A stretch of 30,491 nucleotides of DNA from Opitutales bacterium (GTDB lineage: Bacteria; Verrucomicrobiota; Verrucomicrobiia; Opitutales; Coraliomargaritaceae), in assembly GCA_049606355.1 (NCBI GenBank), contig JBMYVL010000012.1:1-30491 (forward strand). The letters are read 5' to 3'. The translations under genes were made by a program, and so were the position numbers. Each line of letters begins with the position of its first letter. Within the stretch, counting starts at the first letter, position 1. Below, in pieces: positions 2 to 29,799 of the stretch. A model generated the notes under the pieces. The model was given only the letters and a program-made list of their open reading frames with translations. It had not been told where the DNA came from and ran no database searches.

Positions 2-835
2 TACCTGTCGAGCGCCAATAGTTACGATGCGTCTGGTTCGAATGACTTGATTTTGGACGTTGCTGAGGGTGGCATGACGACCTATGCGCCGTTGTCCGGC
101 ACGGGTAGCACTGTTGTGAATAACTTCCTCGTGTATGAAATTCCCGATGAAACGGATGCCACAACGACGACCTATACCACGAACTTCAATTATACGGCAG
201 GCGATGCCATTGCGATCTCCTTTGGCTCTTACAATACGGCTTATGCCTACGACAATCTATCAATTACCACCTATGTGGGCACTGACACCGACGGTGATGG
301 CCTCGACGATAGTGTGGAAACCAACACGGGCACCTACGTGGATGCGTCGAACACCGGTACGGATCCAAACAGTGTTGACAGTGATGGCGATGGCTTGTCG
401 GACGGTGATGAAGTCAACAGTTATGGTACCGATCCAACAACGAATGATACTGATGGCGATGGTTTGCTCGATCAAGATGAGATCTCACTGCACAAGAGTG
501 ATCCGACCAGTACCGACACGCATGGCGATGGCCTCCTTGATGGTGACATCAATGCCGCGGGTTACAGCCCGGGTACTGATTACAGTGCGATCTTAACCGA
601 TGCCGTCCTCAATCCGCTCGGCTTTAGCACGGGTGGTGGTTCAGGAGGTACTCCTGAGGCCGGTGACGATGCTGTAGTCGTTGCCACTTCGAGCGGCAGT
701 GCAAGCGTGCAGTTACAAGTCGAGCGCAGCAGCGACTTGACCAACTGGTCTGCAGACGCCAGCGACGTGGTAAATGCTGACATCAGCGTTTCAGGCGGCG
801 AGGATTACCTCCGCTTTGCTATCCCGCAAAACTAG
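2..835 (+). CDS. 3' fragment of a secreted multidomain protein (5' truncated by the window edge): CBM-like jelly-roll module, four thrombospondin type-3-like Ca-binding repeats and a C-terminal beta-sandwich tail. It is probably a further paralogue of the 5077..8037 gene.
   Basis: The frame-2 ORF is open from the window edge, so the TTG at 47 in the ORF track is not a true start. YLSSANSYDASGSNDLILDVAEGG...FNYTAGDAIAISFGSYNTAYAYDNLSI aligns with YLWYARNFDTSGSNDLFVDATQGG...FNYTAGDALILVFGSYNTAFAYDNVSI of the 5077..8037 protein. DxDxDGxxDxxE repeats follow, then a tail with SSDLTNW...YLRF. An intrinsic terminator lies just downstream. Confidence 0.8.
   Translation, partial: YLSSANSYDASGSNDLILDVAEGGMTTYAPLSGTGSTVVNNFLVYEIPDETDATTTTYTTNFNYTAGDAIAISFGSYNTAYAYDNLSITTYVGTDTDGDGLDDSVETNTGTYVDASNTGTDPNSVDSDGDGLSDGDEVNSYGTDPTTNDTDGDGLLDQDEISLHKSDPTSTDTHGDGLLDGDINAAGYSPGTDYSAILTDAVLNPLGFSTGGGSGGTPEAGDDAVVVATSSGSASVQLQVERSSDLTNWSADASDVVNADISVSGGEDYLRFAIPQN
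278..547 (+). repeat. Coding tandem repeats: four thrombospondin type-3-like calcium-binding repeats (DTDGDGLDDSVE, DSDGDGLSDGDE, DTDGDGLLDQDE, DTHGDGLLDGD)
   Basis: The DxDxDGxxDxxE motif is repeated every 23-31 aa in the translated ORF. The repetition is at protein level, not an exact nucleotide repeat. Confidence 0.75.
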
Positions 836-1007: not shown

Positions 1008-2210
1008 TTAGCGTGCGACTTCCGGTGAACTCTGGGTGCGCCGGTACTCGGTCGGTGTTTGGCCGGTTTGCTCGCGAAAGACCTGCGTGAGGTAGCGCAC
1101 GTTTTCATACCCCGATCGACCGGCAATACTTTTGATGCTGAGGTTGGTGCTCGTCAGTAATTCCTTGATGCGGTTGATTTGGGTGCGCTGTATTTCACTG
1201 TGGATCGAGCGCCCAATCGCTTTCATGAATTTGCGGTACCCCGTCGAATTGGACATGCCGGTGATGTTGAGGACATCCGTCGGCGTAATGGGGTCGCAGG
1301 CGTGTTCTTGAATATAGCGTAGGGCAAAGGCGACTTCAGGATCATCAAAGCGCATGTAGTTACTCGAGTCACGCGTGACGACGCCTGAGGGTAGGATGTA
1401 ATTCAGTTTCGGCGGCGTCGCTTCTCCCGTAAGTAGCTGATCGAGCAGTTTGGCGGCGGTATAGCCGGCATTACTGGCATTTACGTTAATACTGCTGAGC
1501 TTGGGTTGTGATAATTCGCACAGCCAGCGGTCATTATCCACACCTAATACCGAGAGTTCTTGTGGAACGCTTATGTGGTTGACGACACATGCATCCAGTA
1601 CCCAGCGGGCCCAGCCGTCGAAGAACACAAAAACACCGCAGGGCTGGGGGAGTTGTTTGAGCCAGTCTCCCAGAGCTTGTATCGCCTCCGCCATGTTACT
1701 ACCGGTCGGCAGACGGCCTTCGAAGATGTGACACTCAAACTTGTTCTTTTTTAATTCTGCAACGTAGCCATCACAGCGCTGCTGGCACCATGGCGCACGT
1801 TCGTTGCCACCGCAGAAAGCAAAATGGCGCAGGCCACTACTGATGAAGTGCTGCGCAGCCATTTGTCCGATAGCCTGTTGGTCTGAGGTGACGATCGGGA
1901 AGTTTAAATGACCCTCCACGGCTTCCGAATAACTGCCAAAGCCGATGGTTGGTATGCCTTCGAGTTGCCCAATTTGCTCGATCCCGGAAATATGAATACT
2001 GGTAATGATGCCATCGGGTTGCCAGTGCTGTAGGCTTTCCAATGTTGGTTCGGTCATCGGGTCCATCAGGATGATCCAGTCCGAGTGGCTGCGGATGTAA
2101 TCACCCACACCGCGTGCGATGGCACGGTCAAAGGCCATATCCGACTCGAGTAAGAGCGCGATGCGTTTTACGCGTGGGCGCCCCGTCTGCTTAGCGTTGA
2201 ACTGACTCAT
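1008..2210 (-). CDS. XylR-like transcriptional regulator: N-terminal periplasmic-binding-protein-like sugar-sensor domain plus C-terminal AraC-type HTH
   Basis: 400 aa. The N-terminal part (RIALLLESDMAFDRAIARGVGDYI..., VLGVDND) resembles the LacI/PBP-type domain of E. coli XylR. The C-terminus (IQEHACDPITPTDVL...SIKSIAGRSGYENVRYLTQVFREQTGQTPTEYRR) is a typical AraC double HTH. It is divergent from the enzyme array. Confidence 0.9.
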   Translation of the reverse strand: MSQFNAKQTGRPRVKRIALLLESDMAFDRAIARGVGDYIRSHSDWIILMDPMTEPTLESLQHWQPDGIITSIHISGIEQIGQLEGIPTIGFGSYSEAVEGHLNFPIVTSDQQAIGQMAAQHFISSGLRHFAFCGGNERAPWCQQRCDGYVAELKKNKFECHIFEGRLPTGSNMAEAIQALGDWLKQLPQPCGVFVFFDGWARWVLDACVVNHISVPQELSVLGVDNDRWLCELSQPKLSSINVNASNAGYTAAKLLDQLLTGEATPPKLNYILPSGVVTRDSSNYMRFDDPEVAFALRYIQEHACDPITPTDVLNITGMSNSTGYRKFMKAIGRSIHSEIQRTQINRIKELLTSTNLSIKSIAGRSGYENVRYLTQVFREQTGQTPTEYRRTQSSPEVAR

Positions 2211-2380: not shown

Positions 2381-3616
2381 ATGAAAGGCATCATTATCGG
2401 TTTCACATGTTATGCGCTTTCGGTCTGCGGACTCAAAGCCGATTCCCCCACGATCTTCAGTTTATCAGCTGGAGCGCAAAGTATTGGTGTGCGTTACCAA
2501 TTTACTGAGGAAACTGCCTTAGTCGAGAGTGCGCAAGCGATCGCCGCGCTGGGTTCAGATACGCTCAAAATTGCCTGCACGCCCAAATATACGGATGATT
2601 ATCGGTTGCAGGCAGATCCGCAGATTCGTTCGCTGTCGGATTTGCTGGACCGCAAGCCTGATTACCTCGAGGTCATGGACATGCCCTTCCGCAATATTAT
2701 GTTGTGGGTCTATCCCTTTGCGGATTCGCAGGCAGCTTTTTTTAAGGGAGAGCTCAGCGAGGCAGAGTCTCAAGCGATATACAAGGAGATCTACGAATTT
2801 ACGGCCTACATCCTGAAGCGCTATTCCGGCAGTGGAAAAACCTTCTTCTTCGGCAATTGGGAAGGGGACTGGCACGTCCAAGCGGAGCGGTATGATTATA
2901 ATTTCGATCCGGAGCCTGAGGTGATCGCCGCGTCGATCGAGTGGTTTCGGATTCGGGAGCAGGCGATCGCAGATGCGCGCAGGGATACGCCTCACGAAGA
3001 TGTGACGGTGTATTACTACATTGAATTGAACCACGTGGCTAAGGCGATGGATCACGACAAGCCGGCAATCGTCAATCGGATCTTGCCGCACATCAAAACA
3101 GACTATGTGTCGTGGTCGAGTTACGATATTACCAAGCCAGCGGCCCGCATGGGTGGCGAAAAGGGCCGAGCACGTGTTCATCAGGCACTCGATTATATCG
3201 AAGCACACCTGCCTGCAAGTGATCTGCCCGGCAAGCGGGTCTTTATCGGGGAGTATGGCTTTGAGTTGAATTCCTTTCCGGACCCGGACTTGCAACGCAA
3301 GTACACGGCGTCGATTATGAAGTGGTCCCTCGAGTGGGGCTGCCCCTTTATTCTGTATTGGGAACTTTATTGTAATGAGATCGACCCTGCCACCGGCGAA
3401 CATCGCGGTTACTGGTTAATTGATGACAAGGGCGACAAGCAGCCGGTCTGGTTTTTCCACAAGGAATTTCTCAGCAAAGCGAATACCTATGTGCGCGACT
3501 ATGAGAAGACGCATGGCCGCCTGCCTACGCAGCAAAGCTATAATGCTGCGGCAGCTGGCTGGATCGAAGATTTCATGACCTACGACATCCGCATCGATAA
3601 CCGGCGGAGCGAATGA
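2381..3616 (+). CDS. Secreted protein of an unassigned GH-like family (putative clan GH-A-type TIM-barrel glycoside hydrolase), stand-alone form
   Basis: 411 aa with an N-terminal signal peptide. It is a paralogue of 9519..10703 and of the central modules of 5077..8037 and 10733..14545. Conserved motifs are SGSGKTFFFGNWEGDW (Glu codon 2861-2863), YIELN, DYVSWSSYD, GKRVFIGEYGF (Glu codon 3251-3253) and FILYWELY. Confidence 0.85.
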   Translation: MKGIIIGFTCYALSVCGLKADSPTIFSLSAGAQSIGVRYQFTEETALVESAQAIAALGSDTLKIACTPKYTDDYRLQADPQIRSLSDLLDRKPDYLEVMDMPFRNIMLWVYPFADSQAAFFKGELSEAESQAIYKEIYEFTAYILKRYSGSGKTFFFGNWEGDWHVQAERYDYNFDPEPEVIAASIEWFRIREQAIADARRDTPHEDVTVYYYIELNHVAKAMDHDKPAIVNRILPHIKTDYVSWSSYDITKPAARMGGEKGRARVHQALDYIEAHLPASDLPGKRVFIGEYGFELNSFPDPDLQRKYTASIMKWSLEWGCPFILYWELYCNEIDPATGEHRGYWLIDDKGDKQPVWFFHKEFLSKANTYVRDYEKTHGRLPTQQSYNAAAAGWIEDFMTYDIRIDNRRSE

Positions 3617-3704
3617 GCGCGCTAGCGTTTGCCCCGCTCGCCAGAGCGTACGCTATGCCTTTGCGACGCTCGCTCCGTTAATTCGGTTTCCATTTTTACG
3701 TCCC

Positions 3705-5060
3705 ATGCCCCGCTTTAACCCAACCCTGCTTTGCCTCTGGCTGCTTTCTGCTGCCGGGCTTTTTGCTGTCGGGCAAGTGGCGCAACCGAATATCCTGATG
3801 ATCCTGGTGGATGATCTTGGCTACGGTGATCTGTCCTGCCAAGGGGCAGGGGATCTGCAAACCCCTGCGATTGACCGGCTCTTTGCCAGCGGCATGACCT
3901 TTGAGAATTTTTATGCCAACTGCACCGTTTGCTCGCCGTCCAGAGCGGCCTTCTTGACGGGGCGGTATCCAGACGCAGTGGGAGTCCCGGGTGTGGTACG
4001 GCAGGATCCAAACGACACCTGGGGCTTTCTGGATCCAGAAGTCGAGACCGTGGCGGATGTATTGGCAGCTGCAGGCTATGCGACGGCCCTGATCGGGAAG
4101 TGGCATCTCGGCCTCGAGTCACCCAATCTTCCGAATGAACGTGGCTTCGAGTATTTTCGAGGCTTCCTCGGCGATATGATGGATGACTATTGGAGCCACC
4201 TGCGCGGGGGGATCAACTGGATGCGCCACAATGGGGAGGTGATCGAACCCACGGGGCATGCCACCGACCTGTTTGCGGAGTGGGCTGTGGAGTATCTGCA
4301 ATCGCGGGTCGAAACTGCCGAGCCGTTCTTTCTGTTTCTCTCCCTAAATGCGCCACACGATCCGGTGCAACCGCCGCGCGACTGGCTACAGCGAGTACGG
4401 GAAAGAGAGCCGGGCCTGACGCCGAAACGGGCGCGACTGGTAGCCTTTGTCGAGCACATGGATGCAGGAATCGGTAAGGTGCTGCAACAGTTGGAACGCA
4501 GTGGTTTGGCGCAGGATACTTTGGTTGTGTTTGCTTCGGACAATGGTGGAGCGCTTCGTTTTGGAGCCAACAACGGGCGCTTGCGTGGCGGCAAGGGCGA
4601 TCATTTTGAAGGTGGTATACGGGTGCCGATGGCCGCCACATGGCCGGGGCATATTCCATCGGATTCACGCAGCCAAAATGTGGCGCTGTTGATGGATCTG
4701 CTGCCGACTCTGTGTGATTTGGCCGCTGCGCAACAGCCGGACCTGCTGGACGGGTTGTCACTGCTACCGACACTGATGGGGCATGAGCAAGTGACCAACG
4801 ATCGCGTGCTGTTCTGGGTTCGCCAAGAGGGCAATCCGCGCTTTGGCGGTCATACCTATTACGCAGCCCGTTATAAAAATCACAAATTGCTGCAAAATTC
4901 CCCATGGGAGCCGTATCAGTACTATGACCTTGCAGCTGACCCCTACGAGCGCGCGCCGCTTCAGCCCACAGGCGCGACGTATTCCTTTTTGTTCAATCAA
5001 TTAACCGAGCATATTCAGCGCACCACCGTGCCGCGTCGGCAGTTAGCCAAGCCACTTTAA
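3705..5060 (+). CDS. Cys-type sulfatase (family S1, arylsulfatase A/B-like)
   Basis: 451 aa with a signal peptide. Motifs present: PNILMILVDDLGYGD, the formylglycine motif CSPSRAAFLTGRYP (Cys codon 3930-3932), GKWHLG and ASDNGG. Confidence 0.95.
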   Translation: MPRFNPTLLCLWLLSAAGLFAVGQVAQPNILMILVDDLGYGDLSCQGAGDLQTPAIDRLFASGMTFENFYANCTVCSPSRAAFLTGRYPDAVGVPGVVRQDPNDTWGFLDPEVETVADVLAAAGYATALIGKWHLGLESPNLPNERGFEYFRGFLGDMMDDYWSHLRGGINWMRHNGEVIEPTGHATDLFAEWAVEYLQSRVETAEPFFLFLSLNAPHDPVQPPRDWLQRVREREPGLTPKRARLVAFVEHMDAGIGKVLQQLERSGLAQDTLVVFASDNGGALRFGANNGRLRGGKGDHFEGGIRVPMAATWPGHIPSDSRSQNVALLMDLLPTLCDLAAAQQPDLLDGLSLLPTLMGHEQVTNDRVLFWVRQEGNPRFGGHTYYAARYKNHKLLQNSPWEPYQYYDLAADPYERAPLQPTGATYSFLFNQLTEHIQRTTVPRRQLAKPL

Positions 5061-5076
5061 TACACACACTCCTATT

Positions 5077-8037
5077 ATGAAAACGATACGACCCCTTATC
5101 CGTAGAAAAACAGCCCACCTGCTCGCTTTATTGAGCGCTTCTGCCTGTACCTGTATTGCTGTCGAGCTCCCGCAATCAGGACTGGCCTTGCATCTGGACG
5201 CGGCCTCGATCGAGGGGGTGACCCACGGTGCACTGCTGACGACTGCCTGGGAGGACCAATCTGAGAACAATCTGAATGCAGTTAACAGCTCCGGTACTTA
5301 TCCCACTTATGTCGAGGGAGGGGGCAGCAGCAGTTATCCGGCGGTGCGCTTTGATGGGGTGAATCAATACCTGCGAGTGGATAGTCTCGCGTTAGGTTCC
5401 GATGTGAGTGTGTTTGTCGTTTTTGCCAATCGCGCGACACCACAGGCAAATGATCGCGAGACTCTGCTGGCGTGGCCCGTTAGTGGCGGCGGCAGCTCGC
5501 TGGCTTCCAGTCGCTCCGCCTCAAGTGTACCCGATTATCCCTCGCTCGATGTTCAGTCTACAGGAAGTGTGGTGGGCTCTTGGGTGAATGGTCACCATAC
5601 CGACGCGACCACAGGGGATCTCTTCGCCGACCGTATTTATGTGGGCTCGGCCGTTTACGCAGATTTAAGCAGCAGCACGAACCTCTTAATTGGCAGCAGT
5701 TCATTGAGCGGGACGTATGCCGGGCAGAATGATATTCTGGAAATTCTCATTTACAACCGAGCCCTCAATGAAGCCGAACGCCATCAGGTGCATGCCTACC
5801 TCGGCTCCAAATACGACATCGAAGTCGTGCGACGTTCGATGGATCATCCGGTTGAGTCGTACCCGCATCCGCTCGGCTCGCAACAGTTCGGCACGCAATA
5901 CTCCTTTGGTCAGGATGGCATTCGGACCCTCGATTATGCCAAAGCGACCCTGCGAATGGGGACGCCCGTGGTTAAATTCCGCTTGTCGAACAAGTACAGC
6001 AATACCGATGGCTTTACAGCAGTCTCCGGGATCAACACCTTAACCGAGTTGGTGCGTGACCAGCCGGAGATAAAGGAGATCCTGGATATGCCATTAACCG
6101 ATTATGTTTTCTGGGTTTCGAGCTTTTCCGTCTCTGATTGGACCTACCACTTGGATGCCAATGGCTTGAAACCGACCAAGGAAGCACAAATCTATTCGGA
6201 AGTGTATGCGCTGGTTTCCTACCTGCTGGAGACTTACAGTGGCAGTGGTAAACGCTTCTACATTGGTAATTGGGAAGGTGACTGGAAGCTTGCCGGGAAT
6301 TACAAGGATGACCCGAATACGATCCCGCAAAATCGAATTCAGGGCATGATTGACTGGGCCAACATTCGTCAGCAAGCGGTGGATGACGCTAAGGCCAACA
6401 CCACGCACAGTGATGTGGATGTCTGGTATTATCTTGAGATGAATAAGGCGGATTGGATGCGCCAGGGGCTTCCCTGCGTCGCCAATAGCGTGATTCCGGC
6501 GATGCCGAAGTTGGATATGGTTTCCATTTCCTCGTATACGCTGCACAAGGATAATGGGAATCCTCGTTCCGATGCGGCCATGCACGCTGATCTGGATCAG
6601 GTGCAAGCTCTGTTGGATGCCAAGCCGGATGCGTCCATCCCCGGCAGTCGTCTGATGATTGGTGAATATGGTTGGCAATACAGTAGCACCACCTACTCCA
6701 ATTTAACGGATTTTGCCGATCGCCATGTCACCACCGCGCGCTCCTACTTCAAATGGCAGGGCGGTACCTTGCGTTTCATCTTCCAGTGGCAGTTCTATAA
6801 CCAAGCTGCTAAGACGAATGGAGACCCCAAGGAAATGAGCCTGATTGGTCCGAGCAACGACCTGCGGCCGCTCTACTACATGCATGAAAACAGTTTGCGC
6901 ACGATGCGTCGCTGGGTGGACGACTACTACACGCGCACCGGTGAATTGCCCAGCGAGCGTGCCTATGCGGACCATGCAGATCTCGTTCTCAGTAACGTAG
7001 CGCTGCAGGAGTATGAACCCGTGTACGCATTTGCATCCTACAGTGACTGGCGGGATTATTATTTTGTCGACCCCACTGAATTGCAGGACAGCGCAGTTTC
7101 CGGACCCAGCGCGGACCCGTATCAGTCCGGGCTGCCGAATTTATTGCGCTACGGTCTGGGTGTGCCCAAGTTTGGTGCCGCACCGTCGCGGATGCCGCAC
7201 CTGCGGCAGTATACGGACTCGATGGTGTACGCGATTCCTTTCGATACGAGCAAGACGGATTTGCGTTGGACGGTGCAGGCCGGCAGCACCCTTGGCCAGT
7301 GGAGTACACTGTTTGATTCGCAGTCCTATATCGAAACCGAAGCTTATAGCGAGGACTTTGAGGCCATTGACTTTGTGGTAGGAGCCGGGAACTATTCTTA
7401 TGGCTATGATAAGGATCCCAGTGGAGGGACCTATAAAGCAGTCGATTTCGGTACTTGGTATAAGTCCGGTAGCACTTCGGGTGTGACCGATGTGGATGGC
7501 GATGGGGATAACGAAATCCGGCCCAACCTCTCTGGCAAAAACAATGCAAAAATGTGGGGTGTCATACTGGATCCAACATTGTTTGCGGCAACGGGCTCAG
7601 GTAACTATGTCTTCGACGTCGATTTGATCGGAGCCGACTCCGGAACCTCCAAGATCTACTTATGGTATGCGCGTAATTTTGATACCAGCGGAAGTAACGA
7701 TTTATTTGTCGATGCCACGCAAGGAGGCTTGTCGAACTTCGTGCCGGCCTGGGGGTCGGGAGCGACGGAGGTCGGTGAAATCTTCAATTATGACATTCCG
7801 GATGAAACGGCAAACGGGTCCTATTCAACGAACTTTAATTACACTGCAGGGGACGCACTCATCCTGGTGTTTGGATCTTATAATACCGCCTTTGCGTATG
7901 ATAATGTGAGCATTAAGCGACGAGAGTTGAGCAACGAAGGGCTGACGATAGTGGATGGCTTTGTGGAGCTGAACGCCGACGCGATTGAGGCGGATGCCGA
8001 GCAAATGTTCTACCGCTTGCAACTCCAGCAACAATAG
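5077..8037 (+). CDS. Secreted multidomain protein: LamG/concanavalin-like domain, unassigned GH-like TIM-barrel module, tail-type beta-sandwich and CBM-like jelly-roll module
   Basis: 986 aa with a signal peptide. The LamG_3-like region spans about aa 35-250 (YPAVRFDGVNQYLRV...NDILEILIYNRALNEAE). The GH-like module spans about aa 258-635 (GSGKRFYIGNWEGDW with Glu codon 6274-6276; SRLMIGEYGW with Glu codon 6664-6666; FIFQWQFY). The jelly-roll module spans about aa 756-947. Confidence 0.9.
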   Translation: MKTIRPLIRRKTAHLLALLSASACTCIAVELPQSGLALHLDAASIEGVTHGALLTTAWEDQSENNLNAVNSSGTYPTYVEGGGSSSYPAVRFDGVNQYLRVDSLALGSDVSVFVVFANRATPQANDRETLLAWPVSGGGSSLASSRSASSVPDYPSLDVQSTGSVVGSWVNGHHTDATTGDLFADRIYVGSAVYADLSSSTNLLIGSSSLSGTYAGQNDILEILIYNRALNEAERHQVHAYLGSKYDIEVVRRSMDHPVESYPHPLGSQQFGTQYSFGQDGIRTLDYAKATLRMGTPVVKFRLSNKYSNTDGFTAVSGINTLTELVRDQPEIKEILDMPLTDYVFWVSSFSVSDWTYHLDANGLKPTKEAQIYSEVYALVSYLLETYSGSGKRFYIGNWEGDWKLAGNYKDDPNTIPQNRIQGMIDWANIRQQAVDDAKANTTHSDVDVWYYLEMNKADWMRQGLPCVANSVIPAMPKLDMVSISSYTLHKDNGNPRSDAAMHADLDQVQALLDAKPDASIPGSRLMIGEYGWQYSSTTYSNLTDFADRHVTTARSYFKWQGGTLRFIFQWQFYNQAAKTNGDPKEMSLIGPSNDLRPLYYMHENSLRTMRRWVDDYYTRTGELPSERAYADHADLVLSNVALQEYEPVYAFASYSDWRDYYFVDPTELQDSAVSGPSADPYQSGLPNLLRYGLGVPKFGAAPSRMPHLRQYTDSMVYAIPFDTSKTDLRWTVQAGSTLGQWSTLFDSQSYIETEAYSEDFEAIDFVVGAGNYSYGYDKDPSGGTYKAVDFGTWYKSGSTSGVTDVDGDGDNEIRPNLSGKNNAKMWGVILDPTLFAATGSGNYVFDVDLIGADSGTSKIYLWYARNFDTSGSNDLFVDATQGGLSNFVPAWGSGATEVGEIFNYDIPDETANGSYSTNFNYTAGDALILVFGSYNTAFAYDNVSIKRRELSNEGLTIVDGFVELNADAIEADAEQMFYRLQLQQQ

Positions 8038-8102
8038 CCGACATCGCATCACTCCTTTAAGACAACAACAGACGGCAGCGATACCGTGAATCGATAGCAA
8101 TT

Positions 8103-9509
8103 ATGGAAAAACAGAATGAAACGTCAGCCGATCCATCGGCGAAGCTTGGGTGGGGCGAGAAGTTAGGGTACGCGGCAGGGGACATGGCCTCCTGCCTGTA
8201 CTTCGGTATCTTCATGAACTTCATGGCCATCTTCTACACCGATGTGTTTGGAATTACGCCTGCGGTCCTGGCGACCATGCTCTTGTTCACGCGGACCTGG
8301 GACTGGATCAATGACCCGATCATGGGTGCCATTGCCGACCGGACGCATACGAAAATGGGTAAGTTCCGCCCATGGATTCTGTGGATGATTCCTCCCTACA
8401 TGATTTTGGGCGTCCTCACGTTTACCACCTTTGATTTGGATGGCACGATGAAGATCGTCTACGCGTATGTCACCTATACCTTACTGATGATGGTGTATAC
8501 GGCGATCAATGTTCCCTATGGCGCCTTGATGGGCGTGATGACGGCGCGCTCGGACCAGCGTACGGTCTTGGCCTCCTTCCGCTTTGTCGGTGCGAATGCG
8601 GGCATCTTTACGGTTACCTTGCTGTTGCCGATCTTGGTCAAAACCATTGGCGGCGGCAACGAGCAGTTCGGCTATGGCGGTGCGATGGTTGTGATTGCTT
8701 GCATGGCGGGTGCGCTGTTCTTCGTCACCTTTAAGACCAGCACAGAGCGGATTCGTCCGATGCACAAGAAGCACGAGCCCATTCGACAAGAGATCAAGCA
8801 GTTGCTCAAAAACGGCCCCTGGTTGATTGTGATCTGCTTGAGTATTCTGACGGTTTTAGCGCAAGCCGTGCGAGGTACGCCGATTCTGCACTTCTTTAAA
8901 TATGTCGTCGGCAATGAGGACTGGGGCACGAAGCTGCTCCTGTATAATTCAATGGCTGCCGTGGTCGCTGTGCTACTGAGTAAATGGATCGTGTCGCTGT
9001 TTGGTTGTAAGAAACGTGCGTACATTATCTTGAATCTCCTCTTCGCGGCGATCCTGGTGTGGTTCTATTTCATCCCAATCGACAATTTCAACTTAATGAT
9101 TGTAAACCAACTGCTGATTGCCTTGGTCGCTGCACCGATGATGCCGCTGTTCTGGTCGATGATTGCCGATACCGCGGACTATGGGGCCGCAAAGTTTGGC
9201 CATCGCTCGACCGGGGTCATCTTCTCGGCGGGAACCGCTTCGCAAAAGATCGGTTGGACGGTGGGTCCGGCTTTGGCGATGATGATTTTGGGTACGGTTG
9301 GTTATGTGGCCAATCAAGAGCAGACCGCTGAAACGCAACAAGCCCTGCACTGGATGATGAGTATTATTCCTGCTGGCTTTGCGGTACTCACGGCGGCCGT
9401 CACGGCCTTCTATCCGATCAATCACAAAGTTGAAGCCGAGCTTGAGCTTGCGATGCGTGAGTTGAACCAAGCAAGCGGCGATAGCAGTGGCAGTACGACC
9501 GCAGAATAG
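8103..9509 (+). CDS. MFS transporter of the glycoside-pentoside-hexuronide (GPH):cation symporter family (MelB/XylP/YicJ-like)
   Basis: 468 aa and strongly hydrophobic, with about 12 predicted TM segments. The GPH signature DPIMGAIADRTHTKMGKFRPW lies in the loop after TM2. Confidence 0.9.
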   Translation: MEKQNETSADPSAKLGWGEKLGYAAGDMASCLYFGIFMNFMAIFYTDVFGITPAVLATMLLFTRTWDWINDPIMGAIADRTHTKMGKFRPWILWMIPPYMILGVLTFTTFDLDGTMKIVYAYVTYTLLMMVYTAINVPYGALMGVMTARSDQRTVLASFRFVGANAGIFTVTLLLPILVKTIGGGNEQFGYGGAMVVIACMAGALFFVTFKTSTERIRPMHKKHEPIRQEIKQLLKNGPWLIVICLSILTVLAQAVRGTPILHFFKYVVGNEDWGTKLLLYNSMAAVVAVLLSKWIVSLFGCKKRAYIILNLLFAAILVWFYFIPIDNFNLMIVNQLLIALVAAPMMPLFWSMIADTADYGAAKFGHRSTGVIFSAGTASQKIGWTVGPALAMMILGTVGYVANQEQTAETQQALHWMMSIIPAGFAVLTAAVTAFYPINHKVEAELELAMRELNQASGDSSGSTTAE

Positions 9510-9518
9510 CACCGCAGA

Positions 9519-10703
9519 ATGAGACGCGCAGTACGATTTGGCGGACTCGGTCTACTCTTGAGTGGCTTGGTAGCGATTGCGCCGGCGAATGAGTCGGTGG
9601 ATCGATACAACTACATCTTGGGCACACATACCATCGGGGCGCATTATCAGTTTACGGATAAGACGCGCCTCGTCGAAACGGCCGAGGTTATTCAGGGCAT
9701 GGGGTCGAATATCTTGAAGTTCCGCTTCGGCCCGAGTTTTTCCAAACGCAATTATGCCGGGCCAAATCCGGGCCAGTACGACCGTCTGGTTGATCTGGCA
9801 GCACACGAGCCGTCCTTTCGCGCTGTTTTTGAGATGCCGTTTTATTATTACTTCATGTGGGTCGCACCGATGCAGCCTGCGAAGTGGGGGGATGCAGACG
9901 GCTTCACGCGTAAGGATGCCCTCATCACGTATCGGGAGATTTATGATTTCGTGACCTATTTATTGAAGACCTACCGTGGCAGCGGGAAGCACTTCTATTT
10001 AGGGCATTGGGAGGGGGATTGGCTCTTGGTTCGCGACTACGATGCTCAAATGGACCCAATTCCACACCGCGTCGAAAATATGATTAAGTGGCTGATCGTC
10101 CGCCAAAAAGCAGTGGATGACGCCAAGCGGGACAACCCAGACACGGACGTGCAGGTGTTTCACTACTGCGAGGTCAACCAAGTCATGAAAGGCCTGAAGG
10201 GGCAGAAGTGTTTGACGACAGAAGTGTTACCGCATGTCAGTGTGGATTACGTTTCATACTCTGCCTACGATGCCCAGCAAAACGCGGCAACGAATCTGCC
10301 GGCTGCATTGGATTTCATCGAAAAACACCTACCGGCAAAGCCGGAACTGAGTGGCAAGCGGGTCTGGATCGGTGAATTTGGTTTCAAAGCAAAAAGCCAC
10401 AGCCCCGCGGCCCAGCAAGCTCGTAGTCTCGAGTTTGCCGAACTCGCCATTCAGTGGGGTTGCCCCTTTGTGCTTCACTGGCAGCTGTATGACAACGAGT
10501 TTAAGGACGGCGCGTATAATGGCTTCTGGCTGATCAATGATAAGGGAGAAGAACAACCGCTTTTTCATGCCTTGACTGATTATTTCAATGCGGGCCGCCG
10601 TGCGGTCGCGTCGTCCGTCCAACAAACCGGTCAGGTGCCGGATGCCGACAGTTACCGACAGCAGGCGCAGGAATGGCTGCAAGCTGCCAATGCCCCGCAA
10701 TGA
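9519..10703 (+). CDS. Secreted protein of the same unassigned GH-like family, second stand-alone form
   Basis: 394 aa with a signal peptide. Motifs: GSGKHFYLGHWEGDW (Glu codon 10011-10013; His replaces the Asn seen in the paralogues), YCEVN, DYVSYSAYD, GKRVWIGEFGF (Glu codon 10374-10376) and FVLHWQLY. Confidence 0.85.
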   Translation: MRRAVRFGGLGLLLSGLVAIAPANESVDRYNYILGTHTIGAHYQFTDKTRLVETAEVIQGMGSNILKFRFGPSFSKRNYAGPNPGQYDRLVDLAAHEPSFRAVFEMPFYYYFMWVAPMQPAKWGDADGFTRKDALITYREIYDFVTYLLKTYRGSGKHFYLGHWEGDWLLVRDYDAQMDPIPHRVENMIKWLIVRQKAVDDAKRDNPDTDVQVFHYCEVNQVMKGLKGQKCLTTEVLPHVSVDYVSYSAYDAQQNAATNLPAALDFIEKHLPAKPELSGKRVWIGEFGFKAKSHSPAAQQARSLEFAELAIQWGCPFVLHWQLYDNEFKDGAYNGFWLINDKGEEQPLFHALTDYFNAGRRAVASSVQQTGQVPDADSYRQQAQEWLQAANAPQ

Positions 10704-10732
10704 TCCCAGGACAAAAAACTCAGCGCTCTTTA

Positions 10733-13700
10733 ATGACTCTTCCCTCGAAGCTTCGTCCTGTCTGGCTGATTGCAATTCTACTGAGCTGCGCCGGCCCATC
10801 CATCTGCGCGCAGACGGCTACCTTCGGTAATGTTGACACTTCAAACGGTTGGTTGGATCAGGGTCTGGTGGATGGTGCGAATAGTCCGCAAACGGCGATT
10901 TACCGTGACAGTCTATCCAGCCCTTTAGGGGACATTGTATTTACACTGACGGTGAATAGTTCGTCCCGGATGAAGGTGGTAAACAACTTACTAGGAGTCC
11001 GCGCGGGCAGCAAAGGTTGGCGCATTGATAGTCGTTCCGCCAGCAATAGCGGGGATGATGAATGGATTCGTTTTGAACTGGCGGTCAGCGGTGCAGGTGC
11101 CGCGGATTTGAGTTCGCTGAGTCTGGGCGGCGTGTCCTTGCTCCTGGCGAGTGAGGGCGACTTGATTGAATTCAGCGACGGGCAGGGAAGTCAGGTGCAG
11201 GTCCAGAATCCGGGTTCTGCGGCGCAGCGCTACGGCAGTGGCCAAGCCTTGGATGGCTTGGCGCCCCTGTCGCTGGCCAATGTGGATGGCTTGGGTACGG
11301 GTAGTTGGAGTCTGCAAGCCACGGCCCGTGCGGCCTCAGGCATTCTGACGGATTTTCAAATCGGTAGTCTTTCGATTGATTACACCGTCGCACTGCCGGA
11401 GCCGTCCGAGTTGTTGACCGACGGCCTAGCCCTGCATCTGGATGCGGGCACGCTGAGCGGCCTGAGCGATGGGGCAGCGCTGAGCTCGGGTTGGTCGGAC
11501 TGGAGCGGCAGTGGCCTTACGGCGAGCTCTCCGGAGCCACCGCTTTATGTGAGCGATGGCGGCAGCGGGTATCCGGCAGTGCGCTTCGATGGTGTGGATG
11601 ACTACCTGCAAGTGGATTTGGCTACGGGTAATGAGCTCAGTGTGTTTGCAGTCTTTGCGCAGCGTCGGGCGACTGCGCTTGCGAACTACCGTGACACGCT
11701 GCTCAGCGGAGCGGGTGGGGGTAGCTACCTGTCTCTGGCCTCGAGCCGATCGGCTGCCACTCCGCCGGCCATGCCTTCCTTCAATGCCCTGACGGGGAGC
11801 GGTGTAAGCGTGCAGACCTGGATGAACGGCCATGACACAGCCGACGTCACCGGTGATTTTTTTCCCAACCGTTACAGTATTGCGTCAGCGGTTTACACCC
11901 ATGTGCCAGCGGAGACTGCTTTGTTCATCGGCGCTCAGGACAGCAACGGGTTTCATGCGGGGCAGAATGATATACGTGAGCTGCTGGTCTATGATCGTGA
12001 GTTGACCGATGCCGAGCGGCTGGAGGTGCAGGCTTACCTCGCAGAGAAGTACCAAATCGATGCCATCACGCGTGCGCCGGAGCATCCGGTTGAGTCCTAC
12101 ACCCACCCCCTTGGCTCGCAGCAGTTTGGCCAGCAGTATTCATTCGGTGCGTCCGATTGTTATGTTTTGGATTATGCCAGAGACACCCTGCGTCAGGGGA
12201 ATAGCGTCATCAAGTTCCGTCTTTCGAACCGTTACAACAGTGAGGATGGCTTCACTCAACTTTCAGGAATCAACAGCCTGACAAAACTCGTCCGCGACCA
12301 TCCGCAAGTGCAGGAGGTCCTCGATCTACCGCTCACGGATTATCTGTTTTGGGTGTCGACCTTTTCGGTGCCGAAGTGGCAGGACAAGGCCAAGGAGATC
12401 GGCTCGGTCGGTGAAAGCAGTTGGACCGCTTTCTATGGGGCCAATCGCAGCCTCTATGCCGCAGATACGTATGACGAGCCGGGCAAGTCACCAACGCCGC
12501 TTCAAGGCCTGGATCCTACCGCTGCGCAGCAAATCTATACGGAGATCTATGACCTAACGGTTTACCTGCTGCAGACCTATTCGGGCACGGGCAAGAGCTT
12601 CTACATCGGTAATTGGGAAGGCGACTGGATGCTCAGTGCAACGAATACCTATGTCGATCAGAACATGCCGCCCGAGCGTCTGCAGGCGATGATTGACTGG
12701 GCCAATACCCGTCAACAGGCGATTGATGCGGCCAAGGCGGCTACCCCGCATTCGGATGTGAATGTCTGGTTCTATTTAGAAGCGAATAAAATGGATTGGG
12801 CGCGCAATGAGCAGATCTGCGTGACCAACAGCGTAATTCCGGCGATGCCGAAGCTGGACTTCCTTTCCTTCTCGGCGTACAGCCTGCACAAAACCGGCAA
12901 TGGTCTGACCAAGGATGCCGCCTCGATGCATGCCGATCTGGATCTGTTGCAAGCACGCATCGATGCGAAGCCGGATCCGTCGATCTCAGGAAGCCGTCTA
13001 ATCATCGGCGAGTATGGTTACCTCTACGGCAATCCGGAGCCAGGTGCGAGTGACAACCGCTTCAGCGATTTCTACGATTATACGCAGGAGCATGTGTCTA
13101 CGCTGCGTAATTTTCTCAGTTGGCAAGGGGGTACCCTGCGCTTCCTATTGCAGTGGCAATTCTACAGTCGGCAGATGCAGACCAAGACAAATGCTGCAGG
13201 TCAGGTAGTCCAGTATCCGTATGAGATGTGCCACATCAGCGAACAGCAGGAGATCCGCCCGCTGTATTATCTGCACGCAAACTTTTACGCAGGCATGCGT
13301 CAATGGGTGGCGAACTATTATCAAACACAGGGGAGTCTGCCGACGGATCGTGCGTATGCAGATGCGGCCTACCATTTACTCGGAGGAATTAGCCTGAATC
13401 AGGATGTGCCGGACTTGTCCAATCCGCGGCCGGGTCGTATCGAGCTGCAGGGCAGTGCATCCGCGCTCATTCCCGAAGCCGCAGGTGCCAGCCTGGTACT
13501 TCCGTATACCGCGACCGTCTTCAGTCATTATGGGCGCATCATGCCGAATGAACAGGCCTTGACTTGGTCGCTGCAACCGCAGCAGCAGGGTGTCTCCGTG
13601 GATAGCGCCGGCGAGCTCACCGTATTCGGAAATGCCAGCCCGGATACATACACGTTATCGGCATCACTGAACGCCAATCCCAGCATCTCCACTGCTCAGA

Positions 13701-14545
13701 CGCTGGCCGCCGTATTCCCTGTCGCCAGTACCTACGATCACATGGCTGATTTCAGCCAATCGTTCGGAGTAAACCCGGAGCTAAGCATTGCCTCCTCCAA
13801 TGCGGCCACTCGTTTCGAAGGTGATTCGGGGCGCGTCACGCGTACGTCCTCGACTTCACCGCAAGCGATCGTGTGGGAGGTGTCTGATTTGCAAGGTTTT
13901 CATGCCAAGGTCTATACTTATGGCAGCCTAGGTGCCGCGCTGACTGCCGAAGTCTCCGCCGATGGGGTGGGCTGGCAATCGCTTAGCTTGCGAGTCGACC
14001 CGGCGACCCCTACGGCGGATGGCTGGCAGCGTACCTGGATCGCACCGGCCGCGCCGCTGCCTGAAGGGTCCAATTATCTGCGCCTCGTTTTACAGGATCC
14101 CAACAACGCCTGGTCGCCGCAGCTCGGGCAGCTCGTTCTCTTTGGTGCAGAAACCGGTTACAACTTCTGGAGGGCACAACAGTTCCCGGATTCCAATGAT
14201 GCGGCGAATCCCGACATCTCCGGGCCCGATGCGGATCCGCTGCAGTCCGGGATCTCGAATCTGTACCGCTACTTTGCCGGTTTGCCCTTGAGTGGCGCGG
14301 GGCAGGACCGTTTGCCGAGACTGGAAAACAGTGCGGGGGAGTGGTTTTACAGAATCCCGTTTGATCCGACCAAGTTGGATGTGCGTGCCGTGGTGAAAGG
14401 CTCTCTGGATCTGCAGAGCTGGGACTACACAGTCTTTGATTCTGCCATGGATACTGCTGAGCTACAAGATGGCTGGCTTTGGTTGACTGCCGACCAACTC
14501 CCGGCGAGTGATTCAAAGTTTTTCAAATTGGACCTCTCCCTCTAA
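10733..14545 (+). CDS. Secreted, possibly lipidated, multidomain protein: unknown N-terminal domain, LamG-like domain, unassigned GH-like TIM-barrel module, Ig-like (Big_2-like) domain, galactose-binding-like/CBM-like domain and C-terminal tail module
   Basis: The ORF is open from 10673. The ATG at 10733 gives the signal peptide MTLPSKLRPVWLIAILLSCAG, with a possible LLSC lipobox. An alternative ATG at 10700 overlaps the upstream stop as ATGA. LamG-like region: YPAVRFDGVDDYLQV...NDIRELLVYDRELTDAE. GH-like module: GTGKSFYIGNWEGDW (Glu codon 12617-12619), SRLIIGEYGY (Glu codon 13010-13012) and FLLQWQFY. Confidence 0.85.
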   Translation: MTLPSKLRPVWLIAILLSCAGPSICAQTATFGNVDTSNGWLDQGLVDGANSPQTAIYRDSLSSPLGDIVFTLTVNSSSRMKVVNNLLGVRAGSKGWRIDSRSASNSGDDEWIRFELAVSGAGAADLSSLSLGGVSLLLASEGDLIEFSDGQGSQVQVQNPGSAAQRYGSGQALDGLAPLSLANVDGLGTGSWSLQATARAASGILTDFQIGSLSIDYTVALPEPSELLTDGLALHLDAGTLSGLSDGAALSSGWSDWSGSGLTASSPEPPLYVSDGGSGYPAVRFDGVDDYLQVDLATGNELSVFAVFAQRRATALANYRDTLLSGAGGGSYLSLASSRSAATPPAMPSFNALTGSGVSVQTWMNGHDTADVTGDFFPNRYSIASAVYTHVPAETALFIGAQDSNGFHAGQNDIRELLVYDRELTDAERLEVQAYLAEKYQIDAITRAPEHPVESYTHPLGSQQFGQQYSFGASDCYVLDYARDTLRQGNSVIKFRLSNRYNSEDGFTQLSGINSLTKLVRDHPQVQEVLDLPLTDYLFWVSTFSVPKWQDKAKEIGSVGESSWTAFYGANRSLYAADTYDEPGKSPTPLQGLDPTAAQQIYTEIYDLTVYLLQTYSGTGKSFYIGNWEGDWMLSATNTYVDQNMPPERLQAMIDWANTRQQAIDAAKAATPHSDVNVWFYLEANKMDWARNEQICVTNSVIPAMPKLDFLSFSAYSLHKTGNGLTKDAASMHADLDLLQARIDAKPDPSISGSRLIIGEYGYLYGNPEPGASDNRFSDFYDYTQEHVSTLRNFLSWQGGTLRFLLQWQFYSRQMQTKTNAAGQVVQYPYEMCHISEQQEIRPLYYLHANFYAGMRQWVANYYQTQGSLPTDRAYADAAYHLLGGISLNQDVPDLSNPRPGRIELQGSASALIPEAAGASLVLPYTATVFSHYGRIMPNEQALTWSLQPQQQGVSVDSAGELTVFGNASPDTYTLSASLNANPSISTAQTLAAVFPVASTYDHMADFSQSFGVNPELSIASSNAATRFEGDSGRVTRTSSTSPQAIVWEVSDLQGFHAKVYTYGSLGAALTAEVSADGVGWQSLSLRVDPATPTADGWQRTWIAPAAPLPEGSNYLRLVLQDPNNAWSPQLGQLVLFGAETGYNFWRAQQFPDSNDAANPDISGPDADPLQSGISNLYRYFAGLPLSGAGQDRLPRLENSAGEWFYRIPFDPTKLDVRAVVKGSLDLQSWDYTVFDSAMDTAELQDGWLWLTADQLPASDSKFFKLDLSL

Positions 14546-14547
14546 CC

Positions 14548-16164: not shown

Positions 16165-16183
16165 GAGAAATAGAATTGTCGCT

Positions 16184-19695: not shown

Positions 19696-19730
19696 GTCCT
19701 TGCGATGCACCCAATAACCCAAAAATAGAA

Positions 19731-21329: not shown

Positions 21330-21330
21330 T

Positions 21331-22104
21331 ATGAAGCGCTATTATTACTGGTTTTCCCTATGTCTTTTTGCCGCTGTCAGTTCGGCATCGGCTCAGAAAC
21401 CCTCCTCGGGCTGGCAGGCACTCTACGAGGCCAAGTACTTCGAGGGCATGCCGTATCGTCTCATGCCCCCCCTCGATTTCGATGCGGAGGCGCGCTATCC
21501 AATCATCATCTCCCTGCATGGGGCGGGCGGCCGTGGCAGCGACAATCAAAGGCAGCTGAAAGTCTGGAACCAGCAGCTCACTGAGCAAGCCAATCGTAGG
21601 AACTTTCCCTGTTACGTGCTCGCTCCCCAGTCGAATCGCCACTGGGAACTCGAGCTTTTTGAGAAGGTCAGGCAGATCATCGCAACCCTGCCCGCGGTCG
21701 ATAGCGAGCGGATCTATATCATGGGGCACTCCATGGGGGGGCATGGCACCTTTCTGTGGACGCAGCACGATCCGGATTATTTTGCCGCCGCTGCGGCCTG
21801 CGCCGGCACGGGGCGCACGGGACGACCGGAATTTGTGCAAGCCGAGCGCCTGAAAGATCTGCCGCTGTGGGTCTTTCATGGCGATCAGGACAAGGTCTGC
21901 TCGTACGCGCTCGCTGCAAAACTACTGCAGGACATGCGCGCACTCGGCGGCAACATGAAGCTGACGACTTGGAAAGGCCAAGGGCATGGGGTTGCCGCGA
22001 AGATCATTCCCGGCAACAAGGGGAACATCACCGAGCTCGCGAGTGATCGCAGCGATCCCGAACCGGATTTCCTGACCTGGCTGTTTAAGCAACGTAAGCG
22101 GTAG
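21331..22104 (+). CDS. Secreted alpha/beta-hydrolase, putative carbohydrate esterase (COG4099-like predicted esterase/peptidase fold)
   Basis: 257 aa with a signal peptide. Motifs: LHGAGGRGSDN, the nucleophile elbow GHSMGG (Ser codon 21730-21732) and VFHGDQDKV. It is a paralogue of the esterase domain in 22344..24389. Confidence 0.85.
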   Translation: MKRYYYWFSLCLFAAVSSASAQKPSSGWQALYEAKYFEGMPYRLMPPLDFDAEARYPIIISLHGAGGRGSDNQRQLKVWNQQLTEQANRRNFPCYVLAPQSNRHWELELFEKVRQIIATLPAVDSERIYIMGHSMGGHGTFLWTQHDPDYFAAAAACAGTGRTGRPEFVQAERLKDLPLWVFHGDQDKVCSYALAAKLLQDMRALGGNMKLTTWKGQGHGVAAKIIPGNKGNITELASDRSDPEPDFLTWLFKQRKR

Positions 22105-28487: not shown

Positions 28488-28574
28488 AGGAGTTAAAGTG
28501 GGGCGCCGCAGGTGCCGGAGCCAGGAGCCCTGCCGGTGAGTACTGGGGGCAGGGCGGTTGAAAGCTGTATCGTT

Positions 28575-28603
28575 AAAAAAGAGCCTACAAAAAATGCAGG
28601 CTC
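28575..28603 (-). terminator. Rho-independent terminator downstream of the GH130 gene
   Basis: On the minus strand, GAGCCTGCA-TTTTT-TGTAGGCTC forms a 9-bp stem including one G-U pair. It is followed by TTTTTT (plus-strand A-run 28575-28580). Confidence 0.6.
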
Positions 28604-28611
28604 CGTAAGAA

Positions 28612-28639
28612 GCGGTGCTGCGCTCGAGCGCAGCACCGC
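28612..28639. other. Perfect 28-nt GC-rich palindrome (12-bp stem, TCGA loop) between the GH130 stop and the terminator
   Basis: GCGGTGCTGCGC TCGA GCGCAGCACCGC read directly from the sequence. Its function is unknown; candidates are a stabiliser, a second terminator hairpin or a protein-binding site. Confidence 0.6.
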
Positions 28640-28656
28640 GAGTCCTAAAAATCGTC

Positions 28657-29733: not shown

Positions 29734-29799
29734 AGTATGTAATAGTAGATTTTGAATTGTTGCTTCACGCTTGTTGGACCTGTCGGCCATGCGGCGCAC

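Follow-up and report, generated by a model that had tools for sequence, protein, structure and literature searches.

Sulfated algal and microbial glycans are a major pool of marine carbon that is still poorly understood, and progress with them needs the endo-acting enzymes that open each polymer. The closest systems described so far combine such enzymes with sulfatases or with phosphorylases. The sulfated mannan of diatoms is alpha-1,3-linked and is degraded by glycoside hydrolase (GH) families GH195 and GH92, with an S1_51 sulfatase-GH195 and an S1_11 sulfatase (Krull et al. 2026, PMC13063451), and in the endo-fucanases of GH168 the nucleophile is an Asp on beta4 and the acid/base a Glu on beta6 (PMC12534559). 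A cluster in Thermoanaerobacter joins a GH5 hydrolase to a transporter and two GH130 beta-1,2-mannoside phosphorylases (PMC4264767), and a preprint of May 2026 adds further GH-A-type families through locus-based screening (10.64898/2026.05.19.726164). The subject of this work is a stretch of 30,491 nt (about 56% GC) from an Opitutales bacterium (contig JBMYVL010000012.1), called here the window, in which four exported proteins share an unannotated module in the midst of seven sulfatase genes. On balance, we lean towards the view that this module defines a new retaining family of clan GH-A, which depolymerises a sulfated glycan containing beta-mannosides.

The shared module and its predicted fold

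The four proteins, with the short names used throughout, are listed below; the limits of the family module are the envelopes given by the family hidden Markov model (HMM).

2381..3616, + strand: F1, stand-alone family member of 411 aa with a signal peptide; module at 2381-3583; the AlphaFold2 model is a (β/α)8 barrel, nearest to clan GH-A by Foldseek
2861-2863, + strand: Glu161 of F1, predicted acid/base
3251-3253, + strand: Glu291 of F1, predicted nucleophile
5077..8037, + strand: F2big, multidomain family member of 986 aa with a signal peptide; N-terminal beta-rich domain of about 225 aa at nt ~5164-5850; module at 5755-7008 (Glu400, Glu530); segment shared with F4big at aa 655-748; accessory domain at aa ~757-950, common to the left-edge protein and esterase 2
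9519..10703, + strand: F3, stand-alone family member of 394 aa with a signal peptide; module at 9525-10697, motif GHWEGDW, Glu165 and Glu286
10733..14545, + strand: F4big, multidomain family member of 1270 aa with a signal peptide, with a 72%-identical orthologue on the TARA contig L084; unique N-terminal part of about 225 aa; beta-rich domain of the F2big type at nt 11408-12097; module at 12017-13399 (Glu629, Glu760) with an insertion of about 45 aa after beta3; long C-terminal region

BLASTP relates the four proteins over about 380 aa (E 2e-44 to 6e-86). F1 is 37% identical to F3 (E 6e-86), 32% to F2big (2e-55) and 28% to F4big (1e-47); F3 is 31% identical to F2big (5e-52) and 28% to F4big (2e-44); and the two large forms share 51% over 674 aa (E 0). 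An earlier reading made from the sequence alone (the sequence-only reading) had proposed this shared module, and BLASTP and the HMM envelopes agree with it; every motif block that it listed is present in the alignment of the four proteins. Its spacing of 125-131 residues between the two Glu holds for F1 and F2big (130 each) and F4big (131), and fails for F3 (121). It had also begun the fourth protein at 10733, which is probably correct, as the signal peptide and the alignment with the orthologue favour this start over the ATG at 10673 given by the ORF finder (ORF, open reading frame). Four copies is a high number, as that reading had supposed, since most related Opitutales loci have one or two.

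The module has escaped annotation. No match was found to it in Pfam-A (2025) or NCBIfam (2026) for the four window proteins at E<=1, nor in Pfam-A for 33 diverse members at E<=0.1, and neither a 4-sequence nor a 33-sequence family profile matched any sequence in the PDB. Among the roughly 240 homologues listed, every source name is either "hypothetical protein" or the name of a fused domain. These negatives are consistent with the view of the sequence-only reading that its motif belongs to no familiar CAZy family. Literature searches found no description of the family, no sulfated beta-mannan locus and no endo-beta-1,2-mannanase.

This is nonetheless a large family. At a threshold of E<=1e-3, an exhaustive HMM search recovered 1,683 clusters (50% identity), 573 of them at E<=1e-30. 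When one genome per species was scanned with motif seeds, 532 loci were confirmed, so that it is carried by no fewer than 532 species genomes, from six phyla or more. The phyla are Verrucomicrobiota (Opitutales, Akkermansiaceae, Kiritimatiellia), Planctomycetota, Lentisphaerota, Armatimonadota, Acidobacteriota and Bacteroidota, the last including Gaetbulibacter, Aestuariivivens, Polaribacter, Marinoscillum and Nonlabens. Cultured strains with homologues include Gaetbulibacter aestuarii JCM 17455, Aestuariivivens sediminicola MTV5-3, Marinoscillum sp. MHG1-6 and Oleiharenicola sp. Vm1. In 100 diverse representatives with 27-55% identity, ten residues (F1 numbering) are invariant, K63, G158, W160, E161, D163, R192, Y213, E215, S244 and W327, and E291 is kept in 99%. 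Bacteroidota paralogues at only about 25% identity retain the conserved residues, and with them both motifs, G[NH]WEGDW and IGE[YF]G; the small ones among them score nearly equally against F1 and F3.

The fold was predicted from the F1 module. Its AlphaFold2 model, computed with a 36-sequence alignment, has eight beta/alpha repeats (predicted local distance difference test, pLDDT, 90.3; predicted template modelling score, pTM, 0.88). At E<=1e-3 Foldseek matched it to 153 PDB chains; nearly all of the best 50 come from clan GH-A (template modelling score, TM, 0.40-0.56; 10-16% identity), with GH5 best at E ~3e-7 (TM 0.48-0.56) and the GH-A neighbours lying between 3e-7 and 1e-4. Mannosidases are frequent among them: the neighbours comprise GH5_18 and other exo-beta-mannosidases (6gvb, 6moy, 7lqx, 9y4v, 7bob), and the top 25 chains include the exo-beta-mannosidases 6gvb, GH5_18 BlMan5B with its relatives and Op5Man5, as well as the GH164 beta-mannosidase. 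The other neighbours are GH5 cellulases, xyloglucanases, GH39 enzymes including PslG, and members of GH10, GH1, GH2 and GH157. The TIM barrel anticipated from the motifs is thus supported by the model and by its GH-A neighbours (GH5, GH39, GH164, GH157, GH10).

In the model, beta4 runs from residue 154 to 158 with Glu161 three residues after its end, Glu291 lies inside beta7 (287-292), and Tyr248 and Trp327 come after beta6 and beta8, respectively. We also aligned the family profile with hhalign to the GH5 domain of P0291, a natural fusion protein (E 2.7e-4, probability 42%); this pairs DYVSxSxY with the HxY of beta6, IGEYG (Glu291) with the IGEFG nucleophile motif, and Trp327 with the beta8 Trp. 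The places that the sequence-only reading gave to the two Glu, at the end of beta4 and on beta7, agree with the model and, for Glu291, with the alignment as well. Glu291 is accordingly our predicted nucleophile, from its position on beta7 and the GH5 alignment, and Glu161 the predicted acid/base, from its position. The invariant Lys63, Trp109, Asp163, Glu215/Asn217, Ser244/Ser246/Tyr248 and Trp327 stand in or just after strands beta2 to beta8 of the model, and we take them to line the -1 subsite.

The signature order of the clan, which the sequence-only reading believed to be complete, is reproduced in part: the Glu of beta4, the Tyr of beta6, the Glu of beta7 and the Trp of beta8 are all there, but the beta2 Arg is not, as the invariant residue of beta2 is Lys63 (F1 reads LKIACT), and the invariant Arg, R192, belongs to the helix after beta4. 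These four are also the only counterparts to the residue set of GH5. Against its Arg (beta2), His (beta3), Asn-Glu (beta4) and His-x-Tyr (beta6), the family has Lys63, Trp109, N/H-W-E and S-x-S-x-Y. In the canonical acid/base motif of clan GH-A, Asn directly precedes Glu. Here an invariant Trp separates Asn/His from Glu161 (G-[N/H]-W-E-G-D-W), so that the Asn-Glu pair is absent. As judged from the model, the module is a well-supported (β/α)8 barrel of clan GH-A with one real departure, this N/H-W-E-G-D-W motif, which makes it mechanistically interesting within the clan.

The proteins to which the barrel is fused also bear on its role. Among 54 multidomain representatives we found CBM_2 (nine), fn3 (four), Laminin_G_3 (three), ricin lectin (two), the sorting tail of the type IX secretion system (T9SS; two), GDSL esterase (two to three), F5/8 type C (one) and sulfatase (one); going by domain composition, catalytic domains of carbohydrate-active enzymes are usually built into modular proteins of this kind. 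P0291 (758 aa) carries a family module and a separate N-terminal GH5 domain; the relatives of this GH5 domain in the PDB are all endo-beta-mannanases (8D89, E 8e-31). Natural fusions with an SGNH/GDSL esterase and with an S1 sulfatase were also observed, and the fused examples listed are P0291 and P0279 (778 aa). Ten clusters of C-terminally extended, domain-fused members are all hypothetical proteins, nearly all of them from metagenomes or metagenome-assembled genomes (MAGs).

The large forms of the window have a domain of their own ahead of the barrel. The N-terminal beta-rich domain of F2big and F4big has no Pfam match and only two homologues were found; its AlphaFold2 model has a pLDDT of 49 and only non-significant matches to ConA-like lectins. 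We tentatively take it as probably lectin- or LamG-like.

Gene context and a proposed pathway

The strongest clue to function was absent from the sequence-only reading: a conserved GH130, a phosphomannose isomerase and a symporter, which together point to mannose. The genes of the window lie in two arrays, on the + strand from 2381 to 22104 and on the - strand from 22344 to the right edge, and those outside the family are as follows.

2..835, + strand: left-edge gene, C-terminal 277 aa of a secreted accessory protein of about 415 aa; not a family member; domain shared with F2big and TSP3 calcium-binding repeats
1008..2210, - strand: AraC/XylR-type regulator with a periplasmic-binding-protein-like sensor and a helix-turn-helix, divergent from F1 (Pfam)
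3705..5060, + strand: S1 sulfatase 1, CSPSR motif, signal peptide (Pfam)
8103..9509, + strand: GPH/MFS_2 (glycoside-pentoside-hexuronide) cation symporter (Pfam E 1e-88; TIGR00792 E 2e-105)
14548-16164, 16184-17788, 17785-19695 and 19731-21329, + strand: S1 sulfatases 2-5, consecutive, all with a CxPxR motif and a signal peptide (Pfam)
21331..22104, + strand: esterase 1, an alpha/beta-hydrolase like polyhydroxybutyrate (PHB) depolymerases and carbohydrate esterase family CE1, possible de-O-acylase
22344..24389, - strand: esterase 2, with an N-terminal accessory domain (homologous to F2big aa 743-946), then a Big_7 Ig domain, then an alpha/beta-hydrolase
24399..25898, - strand: S1 sulfatase 6 (Pfam)
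25968..26897, - strand: type I phosphomannose isomerase, 309 aa (Pfam PMI_typeI_cat E 2e-10)
26931..28739, - strand: S1 sulfatase 7, true start probably downstream of the listed ORF start
28657..29799, - strand: GH130, closest to beta-1,2-mannoside phosphorylases (Pfam E 5e-42)
29800..30489, - strand: TonB-dependent outer-membrane receptor, C-terminal 229 aa, running off the right edge (NCBIfam)

The window GH130 is nearest in the PDB to 9fj8 (E 2e-49), 7fip (3e-46) and Lin0857 (1e-39), with beta-1,4-acting phosphorylases at 3e-22 or worse, and in NCBIfam it scores 192 bits with the beta-1,2-mannobiose phosphorylase models against 69 bits with the beta-1,2-mannosidase model. Its match to the beta-1,2-mannoside phosphorylases falls in two stretches, between which some 50 residues (aa ~142-192) are left unaligned with the best PDB match. 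A signal peptide is present on each of the four family proteins; none is evident on the GH130, which is therefore taken as cytoplasmic.

Using the window proteins, we scanned 79 related loci, 47 of which are at least 15 kb long. A GH130 is found at a distance of up to 10 kb in 28 of the 79 and in 24 of the 47 long ones (Verrucomicrobiota, Planctomycetota, Lentisphaerota, Bacteroidota), sulfatases occur in 29 of the 47, and an AraC/XylR regulator is found upstream of the F1 orthologue in 23 of the 79, with the GPH symporter directly downstream in many. F1 orthologues at 56-77% identity mostly adjoin an AraC-type regulator and a GPH symporter, and in Opitutales and other bacteria of the Planctomycetota-Verrucomicrobiota-Chlamydiota (PVC) group they mostly sit in a cassette of AraC/XylR regulator, F1, GPH symporter, GH130 and sulfatases. 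Orthologues of the phosphomannose isomerase (73-77% identity) adjoin family members in three loci (L008-L010), and in two of these (L008, L010) a TonB-dependent receptor again lies next to the GH130. Several marine Bacteroidota share a locus with sulfatase, GH130, a transporter of the sodium:solute symporter family (SSS), sulfatase, a hybrid two-component system regulator (HTCS), three family members, SusC, SusD and sulfatase; the third family member is about 820 aa long with a T9SS tail, and this locus holds no glycosidase besides the family and GH130. Since these are its sole glycosidases, the backbone and the substrate of GH130 should come from the same polymer.

Four independent lines lead in this way toward beta-mannosides, namely the co-localisation with GH130, the isomerase, the fusion with a mannanase and the structural neighbours. 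The sulfatases, together with the one sulfatase fusion, indicate in turn that the substrate is sulfated in marine and PVC members. Here the sequence-only reading was right: all seven sulfatases it counted are S1 by Pfam with C-x-P-x-R in each (six have a clear N-terminal signal-like sequence), and the tie to the breakdown of a sulfated glycan is strengthened by the recurrence of sulfatases across phyla and by the relative fused to one. The two CE1-like esterases suggest that the substrate is also O-acylated, and the affinities of the GH130 hint at a beta-1,2 linkage. The most likely substrate would then be a sulfated, possibly O-acylated glycan containing beta-mannosides, that is, a sulfated beta-mannan or heteromannan.

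A pathway can be proposed for it. What supports it is the homology and fold of the proteins, their conserved residues, the context of their genes and the fusions to other domains; the catalysis, its stereochemistry, the substrate, the cellular locations and the order of the steps we infer from these. The barrel would act by a retaining double displacement in which Glu291 is the nucleophile and Glu161 the acid/base. F2big and F4big would make the first endo-cuts in the polymer, either extracellularly or on the cell surface, and the fragments would enter through the TonB-dependent receptor, to be trimmed in the periplasm by the seven S1 sulfatases, the two esterases, F1 and F3. The GPH symporter, a predicted inner-membrane importer, would take up the resulting beta-mannosyl di- or oligosaccharides, which the cytoplasmic GH130 would cleave by phosphorolysis into mannose-1-phosphate and a sugar, while the phosphomannose isomerase would channel mannose into glycolysis and the AraC/XylR-type regulator would control the gene set.

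We put forward much more tentatively a bolder form of this proposal: a new CAZy family of clan GH-A, marked by N/H-W-E-G-D-W, whose marine members cleave a yet-undescribed sulfated beta-linked mannan, possibly beta-1,2 or of mixed linkage, and O-acylated. Were this doubtful extension true, the family, the S1 sulfatases and the GH130 phosphorylase would make up a new and widespread pathway in Verrucomicrobiota, Bacteroidota, Planctomycetota and Lentisphaerota, and an unrecognised sulfated mannan would be a common aquatic source of carbon. The conserved SusC/D locus of marine Bacteroidota offers no candidate depolymerase other than the family. Assigning an activity would give a function to thousands of "hypothetical proteins", and probably a new CAZy family, and would yield an enzymatic probe to identify and quantify the cognate glycan in seawater, for which laminarin and diatom alpha-mannan reportedly provide precedents. 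New GH families are found regularly, and the surprise is in that sense modest; yet this one is large, spans phyla, is wholly unannotated and appears to be the key enzyme of a conserved locus of sulfatases and GH130.

Some features of related loci deserve mention for themselves. In Oleiharenicola sp. Vm1, a freshwater or soil member of Opitutaceae, a GH116 (L033, 12286-15366) is inserted between symporter and GH130, and the similar gene spacing of L028 makes the same arrangement probable there; the insertion hints that the substrate there may be a variant with glucose in it, similar to glucomannan. In a Polaribacter MAG (L077, 6901-9690) a protein of 929 aa joins an S1 sulfatase to a second GH-A-like domain, distinct from the family (motif WDFWEEPNHFGW); its gene immediately precedes those of four family paralogues, and the fusion recalls the sulfatase-GH195 tandem enzyme.

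At the left edge of the window, the truncated gene had been taken by the sequence-only reading as probably a fifth family member. This is ruled out, since its 90%-identical orthologue on L084 (nt 1121-2368) is complete at 415 aa, with a signal peptide and preceding stop codons, and has no barrel and no family-HMM match; the fragment resembles F2big only in the accessory domain, towards the C-terminus of F2big (aa 861-946). This unassigned domain of about 200 aa recurs in F2big (C-terminal region, 7345-7926), in esterase 2 (N-terminus) and in the left-edge protein, and may be a locus-specific carbohydrate-binding module. In the orthologous TARA locus the left-edge protein is tandemly duplicated (L084, 37-1002 and 1121-2368).

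As to gene calling, sulfatases 3 and 4 share a 4-nt overlap (17785-17788) of the ATGA coupling type. The listed ORF of sulfatase 7 starts about 85 codons upstream of the region of homology and overlaps the 3' end of the GH130, so that its true start is probably internal. The frame of the TonB-dependent receptor, upstream of the GH130, stays open up to the window edge, where the ORF list gave only an internal piece of 173 aa. The longest ORF at 25953-27329 (+ strand, 458 aa) was considered as a conserved unknown gene and discarded as spurious, a low-complexity antisense of the phosphomannose isomerase; calling genes by the longest ORF would thus overlook this key gene of the pathway.

Weighing other explanations

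Several observations weigh against a GH-A depolymerase of a sulfated beta-mannoside glycan. The structural matches are at the level of the fold (TM 0.40-0.56, 10-16% identity), and the acid/base is assigned by position only, as Asn/His-Trp-Glu replaces the Asn-Glu dipeptide. The 192 bits of the GH130 are far under the NCBIfam equivalog cut-offs of 450-550, so that this enzyme may have a linkage specificity not yet characterised in GH130. GH130 is missing from about half of the long loci and sulfatases from about 40%, and members from Armatimonadota, Acidobacteriota and many Planctomycetota have heterogeneous neighbours; a search for common neighbours in the loci without GH130 returned only heterogeneous genes. 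Substrate specificity may thus differ within the family, and the CBM2 fusions suggest that some members target insoluble, probably non-sulfated wall polymers. Finally, the literature searches did not bring up a marine sulfated beta-mannan together with a utilisation locus that fits it, and the known sulfated mannan of diatoms is alpha-1,3-linked and degraded by GH195/GH92 (PMC13063451).

The alternative that best survives keeps the GH-A glycosidase and changes the backbone, which would be a sulfated alpha-L-fucan, rhamnan, galactan, beta-glucuronan or glucan, with GH130 and the isomerase serving a side chain or a second component. We consider it unlikely, though it is the most serious of the competitors. 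The specificities of clan GH-A are many, and the Foldseek neighbours include cellulases, xylanases, xyloglucanases, PslG and beta-glucuronidases; the GH116 of the freshwater Opitutaceae loci, the long loci without GH130 and the presence of GH29 and GH92 among neighbours elsewhere would all fit a backbone other than mannan. It is harder to reconcile with the SusC/D locus of Bacteroidota, where the family and GH130 are the only glycosidases, with the fusion of a family member to a GH5 beta-mannanase-like domain, and with the phosphomannose isomerase that adjoins family members.

It is also possible, but rather improbable, that the family already has a place in a recent CAZy GH family, or in a divergent GH-A subfamily, absent from Pfam, NCBIfam and the PDB. 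The numbering of CAZy reaches at least GH195 (PMC13063451), and the preprint mentioned above (10.64898/2026.05.19.726164) adds further families of the GH-A type. Against this stand the lack of any Pfam match in 33 diverse members and of any PDB match to the 33-sequence profile, the names of the roughly 240 listed homologues and the silence of the literature searches, and the candidates that we could name are different. The GH195 or GH99-like identity was rejected, as there is no match to the GH99 model PF16317 in the window proteins or the 33 members, no GH99 structure among the top 50 folds, and the context is GH130 rather than GH92; GH195 itself was compared by its published description. GH168 was rejected because the present family has its Glu after beta4 and another in beta7, and no GH168 chain is among the top 50 Foldseek matches, although GH168 structures are reported as solved. 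GH_New1 (GH140-like) and GH_New2 (with a 281-aa N-terminal sandwich) of the preprint were judged different by their described architecture and relatives. Nor is this GH5 as Pfam defines it: PF00150 has no match in the four window proteins or the 33 diverse members at E<=0.1, and the precomputed PF00150 match of P0291 falls to its separate N-terminal GH5 mannanase-like domain.

A third explanation, which we hold to be quite improbable, is that the small forms are exo-beta-mannosidases, like GH5_18, acting on a core of the Man-beta-1,4-GlcNAc type, and that the locus targets sulfated glycoprotein glycans. GH5_18 and other exo-beta-mannosidases do head the Foldseek matches, and GH130 includes Man-GlcNAc phosphorylases. 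The window, however, has none of the genes of N-glycan loci that were sought by Pfam (GH18, GH85, GH20, GH92, GH29, GH33), its GH130 is far nearer to the beta-1,2-mannoside phosphorylases than to UhgbMP-type enzymes, and the large forms bear T9SS tails or lectin-like domains, as surface endo-enzymes do. That the module is no hydrolase at all, but a transglycosylase (GH17 and GH72 are transglycosylases within clan GH-A), a glycan-binding pseudoenzyme or a TIM barrel of another enzyme class, is very improbable, for although the barrel is a generic scaffold and N-W-E departs from the canonical NE, both carboxylates and the signature around them are conserved throughout the family of about 1,700 clusters, all top structural neighbours are glycosidases, the fusions to CBM (carbohydrate-binding module) domains and secretion tails are those of catalytic GH modules, and the loci are catabolic, with transporters.

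Place among the known systems

A depolymerase of a sulfated beta-mannoside glycan, as we favour it, can now be set beside what is known, and, judged against Pfam, NCBIfam and the PDB, we would class the finding as a new variant of clan GH-A at the level of a family. Its nearest relatives in architecture are the GH5 enzymes, above all GH5_18, the exo-beta-mannosidases and the endo-beta-mannanases, with which it has in common the barrel, the Glu after beta4, the IGE[FY]G Glu on beta7, the Tyr of beta6 and the Trp of beta8. It differs from them in having N/H-W-E-G-D-W where they have N-E-P, and Lys where they have Arg on beta2, as well as in its additional invariant residues, Asp163, Arg192 and Glu215-x-Asn217, and its association with sulfatases. 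The GH164 beta-mannosidase Bs164 and PslG of GH39 are neighbours in fold (Foldseek ranks 10-24), with the retaining machinery of GH-A and mannose-containing glycans as substrates, but have no sequence similarity to the family; GH164 is a multidomain enzyme of about 650 aa, and neither is tied in this manner to sulfatases or GH130.

Two systems resemble the locus through its sulfatases. GH168 is likewise a TIM barrel of sulfatase-rich loci in marine Bacteroidota and PVC bacteria. In the diatom alpha-1,3-mannan locus, as proposed here, a marine sulfated mannan is attacked by a previously unknown family of endo-glycosidases working with sulfatases; there, however, GH195 is GH99-like and the exo-enzyme is a GH92 alpha-mannosidase, whereas the present loci have GH130 and neither GH92 nor GH99.

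In its proposed logic, the locus matches the beta-mannan loci of Bacteroidota (GH26 or GH5 with GH130; PMC6298971) and the Thermoanaerobacter cluster (PMC4264767), in which an outer GH-A hydrolase, a transporter and a cytoplasmic GH130 that yields mannose-1-phosphate follow one another. Compared with these systems, no mannobiose epimerase is seen here, the unannotated family takes the place of GH26 or GH5, and three to seven sulfatases, with esterases, are added to the set.

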